Positions 1,881 through 9,667 of a stretch of 16,478 bases of DNA are shown piece after piece (position 1 is the stretch's first letter; each line of letters begins with the position of its first letter). The stretch lies in the IMG/VR virus record IMGVR_UViG_2526164601_000013; one strand, 5' to 3'. Origin of the DNA: a virus (taxonomy: Duplodnaviria; Heunggongvirae; Uroviricota; Caudoviricetes). A model generated the notes under the pieces. That model did no database searches. It was not told the origin of the DNA and saw nothing but the letters and a program-made list of their open reading frames with translations. The position numbers and the translations under genes were made by a program.

Positions 1881-2053
1881 TTCCTCGCACGTTCTCTAAG
1901 CCACCGGATATCCCACAGGTGAGCCGTGTAGTTGAAGGTTTTTACGTCAGATTCTTTTGGGATTGGCTTGCGTTTATTTCTGGAGCGTTTCGTTGGAAGG
2001 TATTTGCAGTTTTCGCAGATGATGTCGGTGATACTTCGTCGCTGTCGTCTCAT
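1877..2053 (-). CDS. ninE: NinE-like protein
   Basis: Track ORF 1877..2098, trimmed to internal Met 16 ([51 protein letters not shown]), matching my recollection of lambda NinE. The chosen start gives an ATGA overlap with the ninB stop. Confidence 0.65.
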
Positions 2054-2460
2054 TCGTACCTCCTGTCGGTAAATCTGACACCCTGACCAATAGCCCATGC
2101 TGTCGTGTACTCAATCAGACTTGCCATACGCTTCACACTCATCTGCGCGCTACTTTCGCGAATGTTGACGTATTCGCCTTCAAGCCCGGGCAAAACATCA
2201 GCTTCCTGTTTTGTTGCCACTGCATGACCGCTGATCAACAAAACCTTCCATTGTTCCGGTTTTAACCATTTTCCGCACCATTGAACCTGACGTGCGATAT
2301 CCGCCAACATCGCGTGAAATTTTGCGTTCTGGTCAAGGTTGCGCTTGTAGTCAGTAATGCGGATGGTAACTGGCTTGTCTTTATCGAGTGGTGTTGCGAG
2401 GATGGCGTTGATTGCGGCTTGCTGTTGTTGCTTAGTTCGGAGGAAGATTGTTTGCTTCAT
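2050..2460 (-). CDS. ninB: NinB-like recombination protein
   Basis: Track ORF, 136 aa. [26 protein letters not shown] region resembles lambda NinB (Orf family). First gene of the nin cluster. Confidence 0.8.
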
Positions 2461-2788
2461 CGAAATTCTTCTCTTTAATTCCAGCGGCTCTGATAGCTTT
2501 CATTACTGCAATTACCGTTTTGTCACGCCCATCCTCATAACCCATCGCATAAGCACCTTCTTCACCATCTCTCCAAAAGTCGTCATTCGATTCTGGCCAG
2601 TCGATATCCAGTTCAATAGCTGCTCGCGATGCCTGCCATAAAGTCCACCACTCATTTAAGGAGTGACGAATATCCATGCTTGAAAATGCGAAGTACCTAT
2701 CACCATTTCTTGCCTCGGTTATCATCTCGAATGGTAATCTCAATTTTTTGGCAACGTATTCCTCAAACTGCTTTCTTGATTCGCCCAT
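2432..2788 (-). CDS. Hypothetical protein (about 118 aa, acidic, Trp-rich)
   Basis: Track ORF 2432..2800. Start moved to the second Met (MGESRKQ), which has a GGAGAG Shine-Dalgarno 5 nt upstream. Confidence 0.5.
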   Translation of the reverse strand: MGESRKQFEEYVAKKLRLPFEMITEARNGDRYFAFSSMDIRHSLNEWWTLWQASRAAIELDIDWPESNDDFWRDGEEGAYAMGYEDGRDKTVIAVMKAIRAAGIKEKNFDEANNLPPN

Positions 2789-2815
2789 ATCACTCTCCAT
2801 CGATGATTTTTTTGG

Positions 2816-2998
2816 TTACCAATAATATTTGATAGTCGCCATAATTATCGGTAGCAACGCGCAGACAACTGAAAACCGTAAAACAAAACCTACTCCCAAT
2901 ATGCGATATCCATTATTCCAGAGAACAAAACTCATCATCAGAAGGAATCCATGAAAAATCGCGACAAGAAATAAACTACAAATAAATGCATTTACCAT
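2816..2998 (-). CDS. Small hydrophobic protein, 60 aa, two predicted TM helices
   Basis: Track ORF. Translation is almost entirely hydrophobic (FICSLFLVAIFHGFLLMMSFVLW ... VVCALLPIIMATI). AT-rich. Weak RBS. Confidence 0.4.
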   Translation of the reverse strand: MVNAFICSLFLVAIFHGFLLMMSFVLWNNGYRILGVGFVLRFSVVCALLPIIMATIKYYW

Positions 2999-3057
2999 CG
3001 GTACTTACCCCTCGCTCTTAATCCAATAAAAAAGGGTTTGCTTCACTGAACACTCCT

Positions 3058-3249
3058 TTATTTTTTATGCCTGTAACCCCATTCTTCCAGCAACCTTGCG
3101 GCGTACCACCCAAGAAACAAAGGAAAGAACATTACAATGAGATATTCCCCGCCACGGTCAATGTTCGAAATTGACCAGATTACGATGTAACCAGTGCAGG
3201 ACAGGAATATTACAAACCCCAAAAAGCTACTTCGTCGACTCATACTCAC
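3058..3249 (-). CDS. Small membrane protein, 63 aa, two predicted TM helices
   Basis: Track ORF. Strong GAAGGAG Shine-Dalgarno upstream of the ATG. Hydrophobic segments FLGFVIFLSCTGYIVIWSI and YLIVMFFPLFLGWYAARLL. Confidence 0.5.
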   Translation of the reverse strand: MSMSRRSSFLGFVIFLSCTGYIVIWSISNIDRGGEYLIVMFFPLFLGWYAARLLEEWGYRHKK

Positions 3250-3253
3250 TCCT

Positions 3254-3469
3254 TCACTTTGATTCCAGACTCCGGATTATTCTGTTGCGCTGAAACTCAT
3301 TGTTGAGTTTGAACAACCGTCGAAGAACACGGTCACGCGGATAGCGTCGTGCAGCAGGTGAATGCTCATACAACTCATCAATCGGCAAACTGGACGATGA
3401 ACGATACCGATACCAACGCACCAACTCTTCACGAAAATTAGCCCTGACAAGCTCAGCTATCGTACTCAT
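3254..3469 (-). CDS. Hypothetical basic protein, 71 aa
   Basis: Track ORF with a GGAGG Shine-Dalgarno 7 nt upstream. First gene after the tR2-like terminator. Confidence 0.5.
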   Translation of the reverse strand: MSTIAELVRANFREELVRWYRYRSSSSLPIDELYEHSPAARRYPRDRVLRRLFKLNNEFQRNRIIRSLESK

Positions 3470-3499
3470 TTCTTAAAGCCTCCAATTCCCTCTCCCCCA

Positions 3500-3530
3500 A
3501 ATAAAAAGGCCTGCGATTACCAGCAGGCCT
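3500..3530 (-). terminator. Rho-independent terminator on the minus strand (tR2-like), between ren-like and the small-gene cluster
   Basis: Minus-strand transcript forms an 8-bp GC-rich stem (AGGCCUGC / GCAGGCCU) with an 8-nt loop, followed by UUUUAUUU. Confidence 0.55.
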
Positions 3531-3555
3531 GTTATTAGCTCAGTGATGTAGATGG

Positions 3556-3846
3556 TCATTGCCTTACTTCCATAAGCGCCCTATTAATAAACGCCGTCAT
3601 TGGATTTGCACATCCCCACCCCGTACCATCTGGATTTCTTTTAATTGGCTCCTTCTTCACTTTGCGTTTTGCATAAATAACCGTCTTCCACTTGCGCTCA
3701 ACAACACTCAAATGCCCTTGTTTCACCATATGCCTTGCTGCTTGAGCGATTCTGTTATTTGGTATTCCGGTGATCAGAGCTAATTCATGTGGGGAGAATT
3801 GTTCATGAGTTTTCAGATATTCCAGGATGATTTCTTTTCCAGTCAC
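3556..3846 (-). CDS. ren: Ren-like winged-helix DNA-binding protein
   Basis: Track ORF, 96 aa. Same size and position (just after the replication genes) as lambda ren, with an MTGKE start and an HTH-like segment. Family assignment is from memory. Confidence 0.5.
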   Translation of the reverse strand: MTGKEIILEYLKTHEQFSPHELALITGIPNNRIAQAARHMVKQGHLSVVERKWKTVIYAKRKVKKEPIKRNPDGTGWGCANPMTAFINRALMEVRQ

Positions 3847-4706
3847 AATCTGCTCCTGTAACTATCCCATGTAAACGCAAGGGTGCATCCGCCGCCATCA
3901 TTCATCCTGTCAATAACACGCTCACCAATGAATGCAGACAGTTCATCTTTGCTCTGGTTGCTAATCAGGATTGTTGGCTTCATACGCTCGTAGCGGGTGT
4001 TGATGATTTCGAACATGATCATCTTTTCCGCCTCGCTTCCAAACTGCACACCAACCTCATCGATAATTAGCAGGTCAGGTTTAGTGAACTGTCGGATCAC
4101 TTCATCCTCAGTGCGGGTGGAGTTTTTCGACCATGTTGATTTATATTCTCTGGCAATTTTCAGCGCCGTTGTGAAAATAGCTGAGCTTTGATGTTCCGTA
4201 ATTGCGTGCCGGGCGATAGCCAGTGCAAGATGATTCTTTCCAGTACCAGGCTTTCCACACATAACCAGCCCACCGCCTTTCTGTAACCTCTCAGGCCATT
4301 TGCTGGCGTATGCCTGACACACCCTGAGCACTCTCTTTGCATCGTCGTTGACTGGCTCGTAGTTCTGTAGTGTGCAACCCTTGAATCGTTCAGGAATATC
4401 AAGATTATTCAACAGAAACTCGACATTGCGCTTACGTGATTCCTCGTCGATTTTAATCTTCTCTGCCTGTAGCCGAATAAGATCATCTCTCATGCATTCC
4501 GGGCATTCGCTAGGTCTTGAAGCAAACTTAATTGGCCCAGTCGAGTAACGGTTACGCTGCTCAAACTCACCATGTTTTTCACAGATGCCAGTGCCAATTT
4601 CTACAGCTGTATGCTCGATAGCAATTGGCGGAGAACTCAATTCTGCAAGTTTTTTCTCCAGTTGGGAGATCTTTTCATCCAGCGTCATGTTCACTCCTGC
4701 GCCCAT
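3843..4706 (-). CDS. Replication protein, DnaC-type helicase loader (AAA+/IstB-like ATPase) with an N-terminal Cys-rich domain
   Basis: Track ORF, 287 aa. Walker A GKPGTGKNHLALAIA, Walker B LLIIDEVG, sensor region and ISNQS motif as in DnaC/IstB. Overlaps the O-like gene stop. Occupies the lambda P position. Confidence 0.85.
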   Translation of the reverse strand: MGAGVNMTLDEKISQLEKKLAELSSPPIAIEHTAVEIGTGICEKHGEFEQRNRYSTGPIKFASRPSECPECMRDDLIRLQAEKIKIDEESRKRNVEFLLNNLDIPERFKGCTLQNYEPVNDDAKRVLRVCQAYASKWPERLQKGGGLVMCGKPGTGKNHLALAIARHAITEHQSSAIFTTALKIAREYKSTWSKNSTRTEDEVIRQFTKPDLLIIDEVGVQFGSEAEKMIMFEIINTRYERMKPTILISNQSKDELSAFIGERVIDRMNDGGGCTLAFTWDSYRSRL

Positions 4707-5557
4707 GAAGGCATTTCAGTTTGTCCGTAATCTTTGGTGGCAAAGTTTTCCTGCATAGCTCGATGCTGCGGACTCGGTTGAGATTTCCCCTTTGGAGTCT
4801 TGGGCTCAAAAATCCCCTGCCAACCACTGGCGATGCTCTGGTTTATAATTTCTTCAGGTGTATATCCCTTCTCCAGACTTCTGCTTAGAACGTTGATAGC
4901 CTGAGTGACACTTTGCTTAGACTTGATCGACTTACCTATCTCCTTGCGATAGGTAACCCACGACAACCATGTTTCTGCCGATAACCAATCAGGCAACTCT
5001 GTTTCTAGCGGGTCGAACTTCTGAGAAACTTTTTTGGGGGATATAGGGGGTTTATTAATATTTTCTTTTGTCTTTAAAGAATGTCTTTTGTGTGTCTCTA
5101 ACTTCGAGACATTGAGTGTCTCTAACTTCGAGACATTGAGTGTCTCTAATTTGGAGACATTTTTTGTCTCTAACTTCGAGACAAAGTTGCTAACTTGGAG
5201 ACACTTGCTGAATTGCCACGCAGATACCTCCCTGTTTACACCGATTTGATTTCCATCCATAAACAGGCAATTCATTGAAATCAGTTCTTTTTTAGCCTTG
5301 TTAACATTCTGCCTTGACAGTCCTGTTAACTGAGCAATTTGCTCATCGGCTATTCGATCTGTTTTCTTATTGAAGCCATATGTTTTCCGGACGTAGGCCA
5401 GCATAACTTTCAACTGGCGAGCGGTTAAATCGGCACTTGCGATAGCTTCCAGCAGCTCGTTAGCGAATCTGGTGTAACCATCATCGATATCAGCCACTCT
5501 TCGCTCCTGTTCAACAGGTTCACTCTTCGGCAGGTAAAATACTTCAGCCAGGCTCAT
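4691..5557 (-). CDS. O: Replication initiator, lambda O-like, with iteron-encoded peptide repeats
   Basis: Track ORF 4691..5617, trimmed to Met MSLAEV, which has a GGAGG Shine-Dalgarno 7 nt upstream. N-terminal domain ERRVADIDDGYTRFANELLEA...KTYGFNKKTDRIADEQIAQLTGLS resembles lambda O. The SKLET(L/K)NV x4 repeats are encoded by the iterons. Confidence 0.85.
   Translation of the reverse strand: MSLAEVFYLPKSEPVEQERRVADIDDGYTRFANELLEAIASADLTARQLKVMLAYVRKTYGFNKKTDRIADEQIAQLTGLSRQNVNKAKKELISMNCLFMDGNQIGVNREVSAWQFSKCLQVSNFVSKLETKNVSKLETLNVSKLETLNVSKLETHKRHSLKTKENINKPPISPKKVSQKFDPLETELPDWLSAETWLSWVTYRKEIGKSIKSKQSVTQAINVLSRSLEKGYTPEEIINQSIASGWQGIFEPKTPKGKSQPSPQHRAMQENFATKDYGQTEMPSWAQE
5040..5202. 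repeat. Putative origin of replication: four 17-bp iterons with 24-bp periodicity plus a partial fifth, and an adjacent AT-rich region
   Basis: GTCTCTAACTTCGAGAC at 5094-5110, 5118-5134 and 5166-5182; variant GTCTCTAATTTGGAGAC at 5142-5158; partial copy to 5202. Each unit is itself an inverted repeat (GTCTC...GAGAC). AT-rich tract at about 5040-5093. All lie inside the O-like gene, as for ori-lambda. Confidence 0.7.
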
Positions 5558-6188
5558 TTCCAACCTCCGCATCAAAGCATTGGGCTTCAAGAGACTTAAC
5601 CATCGCCACACTGCCATCTGTATTAATAACTATCGATGAGTTATATTTGCTTATCAGTTGCTTCGCGTAATCAATTCCGGCGCGAATAAGGAAATTTTTC
5701 ACCGCAGGAAGATGACCAACTACACTACCCATACCTTGCTCTATAAGCTCATCATTAAGATCAAGCTCATTTTCATGGCGAAAAGAAATGAATGAGTCGT
5801 AAATTGCGTATTCTGCCGTCTCGCCATTTCTTTCAGGGCCAACCAGCGCCCTTATTTCATTTAGAGATTCAGAAAGCTCATTATCTTCAAGCTTGAAAAA
5901 CTCTCGATTATCACTAAGCCTCTCTTTTGCAAAGGCTTTATGAATGAGTTTTTCATCTGATGCGGGATTATTTGAATGAAAGGCTGCTATCACCTTAAAT
6001 GGCTTAGGAACGCCAGTAGAGGCTGAAATTTCTTTAGCCCTAACTTCTGGTGAATGCTTAGTCATCCCAATCTTATAAATTCCTGGCATGCACTCATTCG
6101 AAAGCACATAAACAAAGCCATTTGATTTAAAATCATCTGGCACCTTCATGCTCTTCAGAACCTGGAATTTGTCATTTTCGTATGTCAT
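5544..6188 (-). CDS. T5orf172 / GIY-YIG-like domain protein, putative nuclease (214 aa), inserted between cII and O
   Basis: Track ORF. AGGAG Shine-Dalgarno 5 nt upstream of the ATG. N-terminal segment FVYVLSNECMPGIYKIGMTKHSPEVRAKEI ... NREFF fits the GIY-YIG-like T5orf172 pattern as I recall it. The C-terminal ~110 aa are unassigned. Confidence 0.65.
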   Translation of the reverse strand: MTYENDKFQVLKSMKVPDDFKSNGFVYVLSNECMPGIYKIGMTKHSPEVRAKEISASTGVPKPFKVIAAFHSNNPASDEKLIHKAFAKERLSDNREFFKLEDNELSESLNEIRALVGPERNGETAEYAIYDSFISFRHENELDLNDELIEQGMGSVVGHLPAVKNFLIRAGIDYAKQLISKYNSSIVINTDGSVAMVKSLEAQCFDAEVGNEPG

Positions 6189-6222
6189 AATTACTCCTGT
6201 GGATTGATCCAGTCTTTCTACA

Positions 6223-6501
6223 TCAGGCCTCGAAGAATTCGCCGTTCTTCGGGGCTTTTTCTTTTGTCAGCATTCTGGCTACTTTCTTAGCCAGTTCCGC
6301 CAACTCCTCGTCTTCAACACCCCATTCAAGAACAGCCAGAAGCATTCCCATTTTTGGGATGAAGCTGTCTTTCCATCGCGAAATTTGCGATTCATTAATC
6401 CCTAACGCGTCGGCAACCTTTCGCTGACCACGTACAGCAATTCGATTCAGGATGTTGCTTGTAATTGCATTCGCTTTCTTGCGAGTACTTGTAAGTTCCA
6501 T
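6223..6501 (-). CDS. cII: Transcriptional activator cII-like
   Basis: Track ORF 6223..6588, trimmed to Met MELTSTRKK, which has an AAGGA Shine-Dalgarno. QISRWK...IPKMGMLLAVLEWGV closely resembles lambda cII (SQISRWKRDWIPKFSMLLAVLEWGV). Lies downstream of cro and nutR. Confidence 0.8.
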   Translation of the reverse strand: MELTSTRKKANAITSNILNRIAVRGQRKVADALGINESQISRWKDSFIPKMGMLLAVLEWGVEDEELAELAKKVARMLTKEKAPKNGEFFEA

Positions 6502-6559
6502 ATGTAAGTATTTCCTTAACAAATAAGAAGTTATGCGCATCAACTTATGCGCGTTGTAT

Positions 6560-6602
6560 TCCCGCATTTCGGCGGGAATGAGGACCATGACTGTTAAAGA
6601 GC
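6560..6602 (-). promoter_or_regulatory. nutR site: boxA and boxB hairpin
   Basis: Read on the minus strand: boxA GCTCTTTAACA (plus 6592-6602) and boxB hairpin TCCCGC-CGAAAT-GCGGGA (plus 6560-6577). Both elements are identical to the nutL copies. Confidence 0.65.
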
Positions 6603-6610
6603 GGTGTTAC

Positions 6611-6835
6611 TTATGCTGCCTGATTCGGTTTTGGAAACAGGTGTGGCAAATCGGGGCGAATTTCGTAAGCCTTGATCTGCCCTCCAGTGGCGTTAACGAT
6701 GGCGGTAACTTTCTCTGGAGAGACCAACCCGCCTTTCAGCCATTTGTGTACTGCTGGCTGCGTTACACCACACTTGTCGGCAAGGCGCTTTTGGCTACCG
6801 ACAATTTTCAAGGCTCGTTGAATTACTAAATTCAT
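6611..6835 (-). CDS. cro: Cro-like repressor (HTH)
   Basis: Track ORF 6611..6856, trimmed to Met MNLVIQ, which has an AAGAGG Shine-Dalgarno 6 nt upstream. HTH segment GSQKRLADKCGVTQPAVHKW. Divergent from cI across the operator region. Confidence 0.7.
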   Translation of the reverse strand: MNLVIQRALKIVGSQKRLADKCGVTQPAVHKWLKGGLVSPEKVTAIVNATGGQIKAYEIRPDLPHLFPKPNQAA

Positions 6836-6859
6836 GAGCATACCTCTTGTGGTCATTAC

Positions 6860-6946
6860 TTATAACCAAAGATAACTCAAGTTATAAAAAATAGCAATAA
6901 CCTTTGTTATTTTACTTTGGATAACCGTAGTTATAGATTTGTGGGT
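6860..6946. promoter_or_regulatory. OR operator region with divergent pR/pRM: three 14-bp palindromic operators ATAAC-N4-GTTAT
   Basis: ATAACTCAAGTTAT at 6872-6885, ATAACCTTTGTTAT at 6897-6910, ATAACCGTAGTTAT at 6921-6934, spaced 24-25 bp centre to centre, between cro and cI. Confidence 0.6.
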
Positions 6947-7654
6947 ATGAAAACATTCGCAGAAAGACTAAATGCAGCCATGAGCTCAGCAGGGGTATCA
7001 CAATCACAGCTTGCTGACATGGTTGGAATATCTCAGCCAGCCATACAGAAGATGTCGTCCGGTAAAACAAACGGATCTCGCAAGATGGTTGAATTAGCCA
7101 ATGCTTTAAAAGTGCGTCCTGAATGGCTTAGTTCTGGTATTGGTGAAATGAGGGATGGTGCACATGAAGAACCATCCAATGTCCGTGATTCATCTTTAAA
7201 AGCTGTGGTATGGGAAGACATTAAAAGAAACGATGACGAGTTTGTTGCGTTGCCTCTTCTTAACGTTTCGCTTTCAGCTGGAAGCGGTAGCTGCGAGCTA
7301 GAGGAATCATCGGAGTTCTCTTTGGTTTTCAGAAAGCACTATCTGAAAAAGATGGGAGTATCTGAAAGATCAGCCAAGCTAGTTAGGGTTGTAGGGCAAA
7401 GCATGGAACCAACGCTTCACGATGGCGATGTTGTTGGTGTTAACACGCAAGATACCACAATCAGAGATGGTAAAACCTACGCTATTTGCCAGTCTGATTT
7501 GTTACGAGTAAAAACATTAATCGCCACCCCTACATCGGTGATAATCAGATCAATAAATCGCGAAGAGTACCCGGATGAAGTAATGGATAGAGATGAATTT
7601 CATGAAACCGTAAGGATTATTGGCAGAGTATTCTGGTCGTCTCATAGTTGGTAA
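6947..7654 (+). CDS. cI: Prophage repressor cI-like (N-terminal HTH, C-terminal LexA/S24 autopeptidase domain)
   Basis: Track ORF 6917..7654, trimmed to Met MKTFAERL because the upstream part overlaps operator 3. HTH segment GVSQSQLADMVGISQPAIQKM. S24 motifs GQSMEPTLHDGDVVGV (Ser) and LRVKTL (Lys). Confidence 0.85.
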   Translation: MKTFAERLNAAMSSAGVSQSQLADMVGISQPAIQKMSSGKTNGSRKMVELANALKVRPEWLSSGIGEMRDGAHEEPSNVRDSSLKAVVWEDIKRNDDEFVALPLLNVSLSAGSGSCELEESSEFSLVFRKHYLKKMGVSERSAKLVRVVGQSMEPTLHDGDVVGVNTQDTTIRDGKTYAICQSDLLRVKTLIATPTSVIIRSINREEYPDEVMDRDEFHETVRIIGRVFWSSHSW

Positions 7655-7694
7655 CCGATAATCAGAAGAAGACTTACGGAAGTGCGGAGGGATA

Positions 7695-7991
7695 ATGGAA
7701 TTTCTGATAGTTTTTGTTGTTGTTTTGGTCATCATTCTTTTTGTTTTGCTAAGCATTAGTAAAAAGCTATCTCAAATGATTGAACATAGCTCTAATCGTG
7801 CAAAAGAAGAAGAGCATATAATTGATATAAAAGAGATTCTCTCTGATATAAAAATCACATTAGATGAAATAAAATACACAACAGATCTAATTGAACAGTA
7901 TAAAATACCAACCCCAAACGAGAGAAAAGCAATAGATCAATATCGTATTGACTTAGAAATCGACGAAATGCTAAGCAAAAGAAAAGACTAA
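7695..7991 (+). CDS. Small membrane-anchored coiled-coil protein (98 aa) downstream of cI; candidate exclusion/abortive-infection moron
   Basis: Track ORF. GGAGGG Shine-Dalgarno upstream. N-terminal TM helix FLIVFVVVLVIILFVLLSI, then a charged helical region. Strongly AT-rich codon usage. Followed by an intrinsic terminator. Confidence 0.6.
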   Translation: MEFLIVFVVVLVIILFVLLSISKKLSQMIEHSSNRAKEEEHIIDIKEILSDIKITLDEIKYTTDLIEQYKIPTPNERKAIDQYRIDLEIDEMLSKRKD

Positions 7992-7996
7992 AAACA

Positions 7997-8023
7997 CCCG
8001 GCCTCAGCGCCGGGTTTTCTTTT
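7997..8023 (+). terminator. Rho-independent terminator ending the cI - orf98 transcription unit
   Basis: Stem CCCGGC / GCCGGG (7997-8002 / 8009-8014), loop CTCAGC, then TTTTCTTTTCC. Confidence 0.7.
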
Positions 8024-8145
8024 CCTGCCGTTCACCACCCAATCAACCATCCTCATCATAGACAAGCATCAAGCCAAAGGTAACACCTTCACCCCGCACG
8101 CAAGCCCTCAAACACCAATCAATCAGCAACATTTACAAAAATAAA

Positions 8146-8230
8146 ATACCTTTGTTATCCATCACTTATAACCTATTTACCATAAAATATAAATTAGGTT
8201 ATTGACCACACCTATAACCTAAGTTATCTT
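8146..8230 (+). promoter_or_regulatory. OL operators and candidate pL promoter
   Basis: ATAACCTAAGTTAT at 8214-8227 and ATAAATTAGGTTAT at 8189-8202, same family as the OR sites. Degenerate third site at about 8146-8181. Candidate -35 TTGACC at 8202-8207 and -10 TATCTT at 8225-8230 with a 17-bp spacer. Confidence 0.5.
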
Positions 8231-8276
8231 TAAGCCATCAGCAGGACGCTGGAAGCCAAACGGAACAGATTGGCAG

Positions 8277-8317
8277 GCTCTTTAACATTGATGGGATTGT
8301 CCCGCCGAAATGCGGGA
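8277..8317 (+). promoter_or_regulatory. nutL site: boxA and boxB hairpin
   Basis: boxA GCTCTTTAACA at 8277-8287 (close to the rrn boxA consensus as I recall it). boxB TCCCGC-CGAAAT-GCGGGA at 8300-8317. Both identical to the nutR copies. Confidence 0.65.
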
Positions 8318-8424
8318 ACCAAAGAGTAGTTGGCTTTGGGGTGACGTGAAGTGCAGCTGCACGACGGCAACCGGAAGATAAGCACCCGGCGCGTCACCGC
8401 CAAAGTCAATCATCGGAGGTCAAC

Positions 8425-8696
8425 ATGACAGTAGTCATTACATATCTGGCTGACGATAACGCCAGAAATCGCGCAGAGCACGCAGACAGGCTCAACGTGA
8501 ACAGGCAATGCAAGAACAGCGATTGGCACGAAAAATTGCGCTAAAGCTCTCTGGTTGCGTCAGAGCAGATAAAGCAGCATCACTCGGAAGCCTTCGCTGC
8601 AAGAAGGCAGATGAATGCAGTGGAAGTATTTGCCTGCCAAACGTAGCCATTTACGCGGCAGGCTACCGGAAATCAAAACAACTGACGGCGAGGTAA
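8425..8696 (+). pseudogene. N: N-like antiterminator, 5' portion, apparently frameshifted
   Basis: GGAGGT Shine-Dalgarno then ATG at 8425 opens a frame reading MTVVITYLADDNA... that stops after 39 codons. The arginine-rich motif (RQKSRRARRQAQREQA) and the N-like body lie in the next frame with no in-frame start before the track ORF's ATG at 8508. Confidence 0.5.
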
Positions 8697-8698
8697 TT

Positions 8699-9061
8699 AT
8701 GGGTCAGGAAGAAAAATATGAGCTTAAAAAGCTCATTGGAGAAGACGCCATAGAAGAAATTGCAGCATTAACAACAGCTATAAAGAATATTAGGTATGCG
8801 CTAAATACGCTTATCTCCTCATGCGACAAAAATAGCAGGGAATTTTTGATACTTGGCGCAGCTCTAGGAATAGTTGATGCGGCAACGCTTCACCTAATTA
8901 CTCATGACGATATTCTTATTGAGCCGTATGAAACATTACTGCTTGTCAGGCAAAAAATGGCTGATGCCGCAGCAAATGGAGACCTTCAACTTTACATCGA
9001 CTTAAGGAAAGTATTAAGGCGAATGGTCAAAACTGAAGGAGATATCCCCCTGACAAAGTAA
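8699..9061 (+). CDS. Hypothetical protein, 120 aa; gene A of an AT-rich two-gene cassette
   Basis: Track ORF 8615..9061, trimmed to Met MGQEEKYELKK, which has a GAGGT Shine-Dalgarno. Start lies immediately after the stop of the N 5' fragment. AT-rich. No family recognised. Confidence 0.55.
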   Translation: MGQEEKYELKKLIGEDAIEEIAALTTAIKNIRYALNTLISSCDKNSREFLILGAALGIVDAATLHLITHDDILIEPYETLLLVRQKMADAAANGDLQLYIDLRKVLRRMVKTEGDIPLTK

Positions 9062-9091
9062 GGGGGTGAAGAGGCCATTTCAGGAATAAAA

Positions 9092-9586
9092 TTAATAATT
9101 TGTCAGCGGCGGTACATATACAGGCTTAGGGTCTGGCGCTCTATACATCCGGTATTCATTCTTACAGCGAGGACATGAATGCACAAAGAACCCATTAGAT
9201 TTTATAGTAACCGTGCTTGGTTGAAGTATCGATATTTTATGTTCGCCGAAGCAATGTGCACAAAGGTTATGCTGCTGAATAGAAGGATCGGAATGACTCT
9301 TAGGTCGATACACGACAGAACCACCTTCAGTTGTATGAAGTTCATAATTCTCAGCTTGCACAACAAACATCTTGATTTTTCTATTTTCATCTCGAAGCTT
9401 CATTGCGATCTCCTTCTCGGCCTGATAAAGGCCAGAGAGCTCCGCATTAAGCATCTGTAAGTCAGTTATTCTTTGGTGTAGATCACCAATAGCTTTAGCG
9501 ATAACAGCATCGTCTCTGGTTTCTTTTATTGTCTTCAGCAGATCATAAGCCTGTTTCGCGGCAGTTATACCAGATAACACATCCAT
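9092..9586 (-). CDS. Hypothetical protein, 164 aa: N-terminal coiled coil plus C-terminal CxxC...CxxC zinc-ribbon-like domain; gene B of the cassette
   Basis: Track ORF, antisense to the pL operon and convergent with gene A. Cys motifs CAHC and CPRC about 20 residues apart. AT-rich. No family recognised. Confidence 0.55.
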   Translation of the reverse strand: MDVLSGITAAKQAYDLLKTIKETRDDAVIAKAIGDLHQRITDLQMLNAELSGLYQAEKEIAMKLRDENRKIKMFVVQAENYELHTTEGGSVVYRPKSHSDPSIQQHNLCAHCFGEHKISILQPSTVTIKSNGFFVHSCPRCKNEYRMYRAPDPKPVYVPPLTNY

Positions 9587-9667
9587 ATAAATTACTCTCT
9601 TACTGTAGGGGTAAGAGGATTTTACTATTTTTCTCGCTGTAGGGGTACACGAGAACCACCGAGCCTG

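Follow-up and report, generated by a model that had tools for sequence, protein, structure and literature searches.

The window, by which I mean the whole stretch of 16,478 nucleotides of Caudoviricetes DNA that was analysed, carries a run of small minus-strand genes between a ren-like gene and ninB: ninA with the tR2 terminator inside it, ORF-A, ORF-B, ORF-C and an EaD-like gene (Table 1). The initial annotation had described three small genes behind a terminator. All three ORFs are present at the coordinates it gave and on the minus strand, but a fourth small gene, ninA, had been overlooked.

Table 1. Features of the ninA-ninB interval and of the antitermination system in the window.
Feature	Position	Strand	Basis and remarks
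ren-like / MarR-like gene, 96 aa	3556..3846	-	last gene 5' of the terminator
ninA homologue, 28 aa	3473..3559	-	MTIYITELITGLLVIAGLFIWGRGNWRL; one hydrophobic segment; contains tR2
lambda tR2 intrinsic terminator	3498..3530	-	stem 3530-3507, U-tract 3506-3498; terminator scan and lambda identity
ORF-A, 71 aa, basic, helical, DUF7301 family	3254..3469	-	PF23975, PHROG 1785
ORF-B, 61 aa, two hydrophobic segments	3058..3243	-	ATG at 3243
Recombination scar, 13-codon hybrid mini-ORF	3005..3046	-	first ninB codons fused to a variant ninA/terminator tail
ORF-C, 60 aa, two hydrophobic segments	2816..2998	-	HMMER/profile relatives, AlphaFold hairpin
EaD-like gene, 122 aa	2432..2800	-	PHROG 343 match
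ninB (Orf recombination mediator)	2050..2460	-	PF05772, 1e-55; closes the variable interval
nutR	6559..6603	-	boxA CGCTCTTTAA 6603-6594; boxB hairpin 6578-6559; intact
nutL	boxB 8300-8317; boxA 8277-8285		boxB the same as in nutR; intact
N antiterminator pseudogene	8425..8697	+	lacks 1 nt between 8471 and 8472, within the arginine-rich motif

That the terminator lies downstream of a ren-like gene, as first annotated, agrees with the matches of that gene's product to lambda Ren (43% identity across 58 aa), PHROG 1687 (6e-40) and PHROG 142 (Ren-like). The TGA stop of the gene overlaps the ATG of ninA. The terminator stem consists of 8 pairs (6 G-C) closed by an 8-nt loop, and is followed by TTTTTATTT (terminator scan); the hairpin is also present in the MFE fold (-17.9 kcal/mol, 56-nt context). 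"tR2-like", the term first applied to it, was too cautious. Hairpin and U-tract are an exact copy of lambda tR2, the flanks are identical as well, and between the ninA ATG at 3559 and a point near 3482 the window differs from lambda by just one base, upstream of the hairpin; by sequence identity this is lambda tR2 itself. Lambda tR2 stops transcription unless RNA polymerase has been modified by N. In P22 the same site is annotated as a terminator ('L2') inside ninA. The nin deletions are covered elsewhere (PMC5630979).

The short ORF spanning tR2 has the hallmarks of ninA, namely a length of 26-28 aa, an MTIYITEL start, a start codon overlapping the upstream stop, and a terminator within it. 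Its product (MTIYITELITGLLVIAGLFIWGRGNWRL) is near-identical to P22 NinA (MTIYITELVTGLLVIAGLFIWGRGKT) and to the lambda equivalent, which lacks annotation in lambda; the last residues differ, GNWRL here versus GKS or GKT in lambda and P22. Every one of the 36 surveyed alleles keeps the frame open. The same bases serve as a terminator hairpin and as coding sequence for a membrane peptide, and the two are maintained together. Both hairpin types found at this site leave the ninA frame open, so that ninA translation might conceivably modulate termination at tR2. In position, too, the pair corresponds to lambda and P22, lying between replication or ren genes on one side and the nin genes on the other with the same ATGA overlap upstream, and homology with lambda and helicase-type phages starts exactly at the ninA ATG within this overlap. 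Whereas in lambda and P22 ninB comes next after ninA, four genes (ORF-A, ORF-B, ORF-C and the EaD-like gene) are inserted here. The initial annotation had placed its three genes outside the canonical lambda nin set. This holds for lambda, where tR2 leads directly to ninB and the genes are absent, but they fall within the wider mosaic pool of the nin region (PMC5630979), and ORF-A already belongs to a Pfam family.

ORF-A scores 90.2 bits with PF23975 (cut-off 27), over model positions 1-64 of 65, and so passes the gathering threshold; it also matches PHROG 1785 (3e-33), and in E. coli O26 its PGAP name is 'DUF7301 family protein'. Its product has 16 K+R against 9 D+E residues (GRAVY -0.88). The AlphaFold model is all-helical (pLDDT 73) and gave no fold match among PDB structures; a search of PDB sequences was also empty. 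A literature search on DUF7301 returned no papers, and I found no study of ORF-A, ORF-B or ORF-C.

At least two of the three ORFs had been credited with good ribosome-binding sites, and in fact sites can be read at all three: GGAGG, 9 nt 5' of the ATG of ORF-A; AAGGAG, 5 nt 5' of that of ORF-B; and GAGGGG, 9 nt 5' of that of ORF-C. The ORF list gives ORF-B as 63 aa with a GTG start at 3249. Hydropathy confirms the claim that both proteins of about 60 aa are strongly hydrophobic, with two hydrophobic stretches in each, and ORF-B ends in a charged C-terminal tail, EEWGYRHKK. By the positive-inside rule alone, ORF-B would be a helical membrane hairpin of N-in/C-in topology with both ends cytoplasmic, and the conserved, positively charged loop of ORF-C would by the same rule alone be cytoplasmic, giving a predicted N-out/C-out topology. 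AlphaFold models ORF-C as a helical hairpin (H2-29 and H32-59), which among viral structures retrieved non-specific helical hairpins only, at E > 1.

Neither ORF-B nor ORF-C has a match in Pfam (E <= 0.1 for ORF-B, E <= 1 for the ORF-C family), PHROG (E <= 0.1 for both), NCBIfam, PADLOC or PDB sequences. The best candidate for ORF-B, Acyl_transf_3 at E = 0.013, was dismissed as a hydrophobic match. Relatives of ORF-C were nevertheless recovered by exhaustive HMMER and profile searches. They are proteins of 61-65 aa and 30-47% identity encoded in Enterobacter, Atlantibacter and Erwiniaceae prophages, they are reciprocal in tblastn, and all lie in early operons of lambdoid prophages. The family is characterized by a length of 60-65 aa, two helices, and a loop motif, SFVxWxN[AG][YF][KR]xLGxG[YF][VI]xR, all of which ORF-C possesses; S23, F24, W27, N29, L34, G35 and R41 are invariant. 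I propose that ORF-C founds a family, so far undescribed, that is marked by the conserved motif in the loop. For ORF-B, tblastn against phages added no distant relatives, and metagenomes yielded mostly identical copies and one at 88%. A scan of genome contigs found one identical copy of ORF-B and nothing for ORF-C.

Both ORFs are unannotated (RefSeq/PGAP) in all four E. coli loci inspected, as would be expected if they were chance ORFs in a non-coding spacer that automatic annotation rightly skipped. Chance might seem sufficient, since 15% of shuffled versions of the AT-rich 453-nt stretch contain a single ATG-ORF 60 or more codons long, and close alleles of ORF-C have dN/dS of 0.64-0.85, values resting on just 10-16 substitutions. 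Two such ORFs on the same strand, however, arose in none of 2000 shuffles. The locus copies of ORF-B and ORF-C are intact in 154 of 154 cases (ORF-B in 84 loci and 16 alleles), and the start codons overlap or abut upstream stops in homologues. Tight packing of the ATGA type is usual for nin genes (PMC8022706). More divergent pairs show clear constraint, with stops in every other frame: ORF-B against its single clearly divergent relative, the 72%-identical P0004, has dN 0.19 and dS 1.0 (dN/dS ~0.19; ratios of 0.6-1.9 in the other frames), and the ORF-C relatives P0009 and P0017 have dN 0.20 and dS 1.24 (dN/dS ~0.16). Given how few substitutions separate the close alleles, the evidence of constraint on ORF-C comes from the wider family and not from the E. 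coli clade directly; in that family, the homologues hold their length and motif over several genera. The initial annotation had made the reality of these ORFs depend on their conservation as coding sequences, and it is conservation that was found, both in the dN/dS of 0.16-0.19 and in the same-length homologues of ORF-C. Chance ORFs are thus hardly credible, and comparison at the sequence level demonstrates that ninA, ORF-A, ORF-B and ORF-C are genuine protein-coding genes under selection.

The ninA-ninB interval occurs in about 40 arrangements, in four replication-module backgrounds. ORF-B is found alone, ORF-C is found alone, both are found in the orders B-C and C-x-B, and in many genomes the ORF-B module is directly followed by ninB. 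One small ORF of the window, the 13 codons at 3046-3005, was considered as a gene and rejected as a recombination scar upon alignment with L004 and the phage Gally, in both of which a variant terminator (GGGGCTA...TAGCCC-T6) lies 5' of ORF-C. In the same alignment a conserved block spans the ORF-C ribosome-binding site through to the MxESRKQFEE start of the EaD-like gene, whose first codons are thus part of a homology block common to ORF-C. Across these genomes, the arrangements demonstrate that ORF-B and ORF-C, which encode unrelated proteins, behave as independent cassettes, freely recombining among phages. Because they assort independently they are not a pair, and a functional pair of the toxin-antitoxin or holin-antiholin kind was rejected for this reason. 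Both genes are carried by Gally, an active, infectious and highly productive phage (PMC9928086), and hence are compatible with phage viability. The accessory pool of the lambdoid nin region comprises 30-50 genes, about 10 per phage, which are non-essential in the laboratory (PMC5630979, PMC8022706). ORF-B and ORF-C match these mosaic genes in position, tight packing, cassette shuffling and presumed dispensability, but neither corresponds to a named nin gene, no family in Pfam, PHROG or NCBIfam includes them, and both encode predicted membrane proteins.

Expression of these genes would appear to depend on the operon. A crude sigma-70 consensus scan, which a weak or activator-dependent promoter could escape, detected no promoter-like site on the minus strand from 3498 to 2050, nor was any terminator-like site detected there. 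On the plus strand, a weak promoter-like site lies at 2816-2845 (9/12); the scan total was 11 such sites compared with 25.7 in shuffled sequence. Rfam searches of the window and of 2400-3900 gave nothing at gathering thresholds, and matches at E <= 1 were chance-level. With no promoter of their own found, the small genes should need N-dependent read-through of tR2. The initial annotation considered antitermination apparently lost, and it does look lost: N carries its frameshift in the arginine-rich motif (three-frame translations and alignment with HK620 N), while both nut sites are intact, nutL being annotated at the homologous place in HK620. The frameshift could be a sequencing error. Of positions 2000-9100 of the window, complete E. 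coli genomes each contain 80% at most. With N frameshifted in the prophage, ORF-A, ORF-B and ORF-C should be largely silent.

The explanation that I consider probable, by a small measure, is that the region from 2816 to 3530 forms the variable leading part of the nin region in the early-right (pR) operon of a lambdoid prophage, behind a ren-like gene. ORF-B and ORF-C would then be accessory, delayed-early inner-membrane microproteins. Their synthesis would be confined to delayed-early lytic growth, once RNA polymerase modified by N passes tR2, and with N frameshifted they would be largely silent in the present prophage. Each would enter the inner membrane as a helical hairpin. My best guess, by analogy, is that they would be dispensable modulators which, in lytic growth, bind an inner-membrane protein of the host or of the phage, for instance to block further DNA entry or to adjust membrane physiology. 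The analogy I favour is with T4 Imm, an early-expressed small membrane protein that stops DNA injection by superinfecting phage (PMC11436027). As with T4 Imm, ORF-B and ORF-C would be small inner-membrane proteins from an early lytic transcript, but Imm has no sequence relationship to either in PHROGs or Pfam.

The initial annotation had instead suggested membrane-depolarising toxins or exclusion factors. The analysis gave no support for this: Pfam, PHROG, NCBIfam and PADLOC showed no homologue among families of toxins, holins, exclusion or defence proteins, the consensus scan no promoter or terminator belonging to the genes themselves, and Rfam no RNA. Such features would be expected of a moron expressed from the prophage or of a locus for a type I toxin. 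The layout argues against autonomous toxins as well as exclusion or immunity genes expressed by the prophage or lysogen.

Many small hydrophobic proteins, such as Hok and TisB, are toxic if over-expressed, and ORF-B and ORF-C are small and very hydrophobic; furthermore, the plus-strand site noted above could yield an RNA antisense to ORF-C. Nonetheless, that site matches at only 9 of 12 positions and such sites are fewer than in shuffles, and the two hydrophobic segments in 60-61 aa differ from the single helix, usually under 50 aa, of type I toxins. Neither protein matches a Pfam toxin family (Hok/Gef, TisB, Ldr, Ibs, Zor and similar) or a PADLOC defence entry, Rfam detects no antitoxin RNA, and the genes do not form separate loci, each with a promoter and a long leader of its own. 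Either gene can occur in the absence of the other, neither has a constant neighbour, and a phage that carries both is highly productive (PMC9928086). Membrane-depolarising toxins of the type I or abortive-infection kind are thus quite improbable.

Superinfection exclusion by proteins expressed from the prophage is, to my mind, unlikely as well. One or both genes could be prophage-expressed inner-membrane morons that block DNA entry, like HK97 gp15 or P22 SieA, and small inner-membrane proteins of lambdoid prophages are known to do so (PMC3594210, PMC10883804). Movement as cassettes would fit, as would the G+C content of ORF-C, 35% compared with 45% for the window (ORF-B, 43%). T-rich hydrophobic codons (T makes up 54% of codon position 2) would account for much of this low G+C. 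By definition a moron is transcribed independently, from its own promoter to its own terminator (PMC3594210), and the consensus scan detected neither here; instead, the genes sit within the repressed pR operon behind tR2, so closely packed against their neighbours that start and stop codons overlap or abut. No homology to exclusion families (T4 Imm, HK97 gp15, P22 SieA/SieB, Cor) was found in PHROG or Pfam. HK97 gp15, of the YebO family, is a moron-encoded inner-membrane exclusion protein (PMC3594210). Like the predicted ORF-B and ORF-C products it is small, sits in the inner membrane and comes from a lambdoid phage, but it is an independent, prophage-expressed unit in the tail operon with chromosomal YebO relatives. 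The relatives of ORF-B and ORF-C with examined context are all in a lambdoid prophage or phage contig, and no similarity to gp15 was found.

A role in lysis timing, as holin- or antiholin-like proteins, is very improbable. Class II holins such as phage 21 S have two membrane segments, N-in/C-in topology and a charged C-terminus, an outline that ORF-B shares in its predicted topology and its tail. It differs from them in genomic location and homology: both genes belong to the early operon, a long way from the lysis cassette; in related prophages a separate holin, of lambda type or otherwise, stands beside the endolysin, beyond Q; and there is no match to a Pfam or PHROG holin family. A more specific version of the modulator idea, unlikely but not negligible, is that ORF-C and, separately, ORF-B represent undescribed families of early membrane microproteins aimed at a specific host inner-membrane protein. 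Candidate targets would be a component of a DNA-entry channel, a defence effector anchored in the membrane or the protease system FtsH/HflKC, and the cytoplasmic loop of ORF-C (WxN[AG][YF][KR]xLGxG) would be the interaction surface.

The locus is an ordinary case of shuffled accessory genes in lambda-like phages, and the general picture of these phages is unchanged, since the terminator, ninA, mosaicism and uncharacterised nin genes were already known. It is at the same time a clear example of gene-sized cassettes shuffling at the head of the nin region. If the interpretation is true, two small membrane-protein families escape standard annotation and lack coverage in domain databases, and they are carried by prophages of pathogenic E. 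coli (O26 STEC and the adherent-invasive strain LF82) and of related Enterobacterales. Because the active phage Gally carries both, ORF-B and ORF-C would then be easy candidates for functional screens at the phage-host membrane.

All three small ORFs reported in the initial annotation behind tR2 are present in the window, and its statement that at least two have good ribosome-binding sites was borne out, with Shine-Dalgarno sequences ahead of ORF-A, ORF-B and ORF-C. When these 453 nt were shuffled 2000 times, a pair of same-strand ORFs of 60 or more codons did not occur once. In the four RefSeq E. coli loci that were checked, PGAP annotates neither ORF-B nor ORF-C; both are also missing from the manual re-annotation of phage Gally, although a few records do list them as hypothetical proteins. 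On the sequence evidence, ORF-B and ORF-C are genes despite what automatic annotation mostly says. Rfam contained no family matching the ORF region.

Coordinates of the features discussed (- and +, strand of the window)
Feature	Position	Strand	Remarks
cro	6856-6611	-	early-right operon
nutR	about 6603-6559	-	early-right operon
cII		-	early-right operon; listed between nutR and the nuclease-like ORF
Nuclease-like ORF	6188-5544	-	214 aa, inserted; PHROG 8430, weak endonuclease-like match
O	5617-4691	-	
DnaC/IstB-like loader	4706-3843	-	
Ren-like gene	3846-3556	-	directly ahead of the stretch under study
ninA	3559-3473	-	encodes MTIYITELITGLLVIAGLFIWGRGNWRL
ORF-A	3469-3254	-	71 aa; K+R 16, D+E 9
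ORF-B	3243 (ATG)-3058	-	61 aa; two hydrophobic stretches
Hybrid ORF	3046-3005	-	13 codons; strong ribosome-binding site AAAGGAG
ORF-C	2998-2816	-	60 aa; two hydrophobic stretches
ninB	2460-2050	-	
Further nin genes	down to RusA (755-393)	-	
nutL	boxA 8277-8285, boxB 8300-8317		intact
N gene	8425-8697	+	frameshifted

Comparison with relatives, which the initial annotation had proposed as a check on coding, favours both ORFs. The ORF-B relative P0004 (61 aa, 72% identical, directly behind a DnaB helicase gene) differs at 46 sites without an indel, comprising 21.8 of 39.5 synonymous and 24.2 of 143.5 non-synonymous sites (dS about 1.0, dN about 0.19, ratio about 0.19); each of the five other frames is interrupted by stops, with ratios of 0.6-1.9. 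ORF-B is also intact in all 84 loci, representing 16 alleles. One allele, in locus L152 (3773-3958), begins MTTRLLGF instead of MSRRSSFLGF with the remainder of the protein unchanged, the product of a recombination junction within the first codons.

Close ORF-C alleles (80-98% identity) are uninformative, their ratios of 0.64-0.85 coming from only 10-16 substitutions. Relatives of 61-65 aa that are 30-47% identical emerged from an exhaustive HMMER search against 1.84 billion representative proteins and a subsequent profile search; their sources are Enterobacter cloacae, Atlantibacter hermannii, an Erwiniaceae genome and metagenomes. The family has seven invariant residues (S23, F24, W27, N29, L34, G35 and R41) and the motif SFVxWxN[AG][YF][KR]xLGxG[YF][VI]xR. 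For two of its members, P0009 and P0017, which are 73% identical in nucleotides, dN is 0.20 and dS 1.24, with the other forward frames closed by stops, and reciprocal tblastn with distant members as query matched ORF-C of Gally. This evidence of selection and homology contradicts the reading of ORF-B and ORF-C as non-coding. All ORF-C relatives whose genomic surroundings were inspected lie in lambdoid prophage early operons, most of them between a helicase (or MarR/Ren-like) gene and ninB, and the Atlantibacter one in the early-left operon behind dam. Each start codon either overlaps the preceding stop codon or directly adjoins it; nin genes are typically packed this tightly (PMC8022706).

The window itself covers the early genes of a lambdoid prophage with a P22/HK620-like mosaic, with the early-right operon on the minus strand and the repressor gene and early-left operon (N, erf, ssb, abc2) on the plus strand. 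The 214-aa ORF lies between the cII/oop terminator and O, whose listed start it overlaps. E. coli strain 222 carries, in the matching stretch, a gene whose annotated product is a GIY-YIG nuclease, and the ORF may be a homing-endonuclease-type insertion. Another ORF, of 164 aa (9092-9586, minus strand; PHROG 1244, unknown function), runs opposite to the surrounding early-left operon with hairpin/T-run sites on either side (9037-9051 and 9596-9618), a moron-like layout.

The terminator, previously called tR2-like, can be identified more sharply. A scan of the minus strand placed the stem AGGCCTGC...GCAGGCCT at 3530-3507 and, behind it, TTTTTATTT. Between the ATG at 3559 and about 3482 the window agrees with lambda except for a single mismatch, which lies upstream of the hairpin; the terminator is therefore lambda tR2 itself. 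Past this point lambda continues into ninB and the window into ORF-A. The shared block begins exactly at an ATG overlapping the upstream stop codon (ATGA), an overlap seen with the ren-like gene of the window, lambda ren or a DnaB-type helicase upstream. It also contains a fourth small gene, ninA, absent from the initial annotation; the P22 record labels the equivalent 26-aa ORF ninA and places the terminator within it. All 36 ninA alleles among the loci compared are open, and the frame is kept with both hairpin types, AGGCCTGC/GCAGGCCT and GGGGCTA/TAGCCCC, the latter found in other phages (as in locus L004, 2452-2532) where the ORF is open and hydrophobic. One further allele, in locus L030, is a hydrophobic ORF without a convincing hairpin. 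The terminator and the peptide appear to have been conserved jointly, and ninA translation might influence termination.

Across about 150 loci the interval from ninA/tR2 to ninB takes about 40 arrangements, counts that are not independent because some loci share a contig. It draws on a small set of cassettes, namely DUF7301 (the family of ORF-A), a 68-aa ORF, a 106-aa ORF, phiTE_015 or EaD-like genes, ORF-B and ORF-C, and there are four replication backgrounds (lambda P/ren, DnaC-like/Ren-like, DnaB helicase and toprim primase-helicase). ORF-B and ORF-C each occur without the other, and their order is B-C in the window and C-EaD-B in Gally; they are therefore independent genes and do not form a two-component system. 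The hybrid ORF between them fuses the first four ninB codons to a variant ninA/terminator tail, the variant standing directly ahead of ORF-C in L004 and Gally, and is a recombination scar that marks the cassette junction. The EaD-like gene of the window and phiTE_015-family genes elsewhere share their first codons, MxESRKQFEE (2788-2800, minus strand, in the window; 5211 onward in loci L008 and L014). A single block of homology always spans ORF-C and these codons, so that ORF-C moves together with the 5' end of the gene downstream of it. Both families are rare: ORF-B occurs in 4 and ORF-C in 1 (Gally) of 50,697 GenBank phage records, and one or both in 214 of 5,426 complete E. coli genomes. 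Since Gally, which resides in strain LF82, is a highly active and infectious prophage (PMC9928086), the two genes are compatible with a productive phage.

On the minus strand from the tR2 U-tract to ninB a consensus scan found no promoter-like or terminator-like site; therefore, ORF-A, ORF-B and ORF-C should be transcribed from pR, only by polymerase passing tR2. In lambda this passage requires N, the basis of nin (N-independent) deletions (PMC5630979). nutL and nutR are both intact (boxA GCTCTTTAA, boxB TCCCGCCGAAATGCGGGA). The N gene is near-identical to HK620 N except for one missing C between 8471 and 8472, within the arginine-rich motif, which yields a 38-residue out-of-frame product. This frameshift supports the earlier remark that antitermination appears lost here. 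It may reflect a real pseudogene or a sequencing error; none of the complete E. coli genomes has exactly this mosaic to compare it with. A sigma-70-like site antisense to ORF-C (2816-2845, plus strand; TTACCA, 18 nt, CATAAT) is probably due to chance, since it is weak (9/12) and such sites are rarer in the window than in shuffled sequence.

ORF-B has R3 and R4 at its N-terminus, a short loop of acidic or neutral character (SNIDRGGE) and, at the other end, a basic tail (RLLEEWGYRHKK), and the positive-inside rule predicts that both ends are cytoplasmic. The structure predicted for ORF-C is a helical hairpin (helices 2-29 and 32-59; pLDDT 69); the protein's positive charges, including invariant R41, fall within and just past the conserved turn, which suggests a cytoplasmic loop and both short ends outside. 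The ORF-A model is basic and all-helical (pLDDT 73), with no fold match. Neither the three proteins nor the ORF-C family profile matched any toxin, holin, exclusion or defence family, or any solved structure. The initial suggestion of toxins or exclusion factors, the latter taken here as prophage-expressed genes (morons), is weakened: for ORF-B and ORF-C the consensus scan showed neither an own promoter nor an own terminator, Rfam gave no antisense RNA, and no gene accompanies them consistently. An own promoter and terminator is a defining feature of morons (PMC3594210). A holin-like role fails on location and on the lack of homology.

The best-supported reading is that the small genes are accessory delayed-early members of a mosaic nin-region pool, two of them encoding predicted inner-membrane hairpin microproteins. 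These might bind a membrane partner during lytic growth, the closest functional parallel being T4 Imm (PMC11436027), although there is no homology. Whereas tR2, ninA, nin-region mosaicism and DUF7301 were already known, the two small membrane-protein families, covered by no domain library and usually missed by annotation, are new, as are the details of their shuffling. Their main value lies in correcting annotation and in providing tractable candidates for functional screens.
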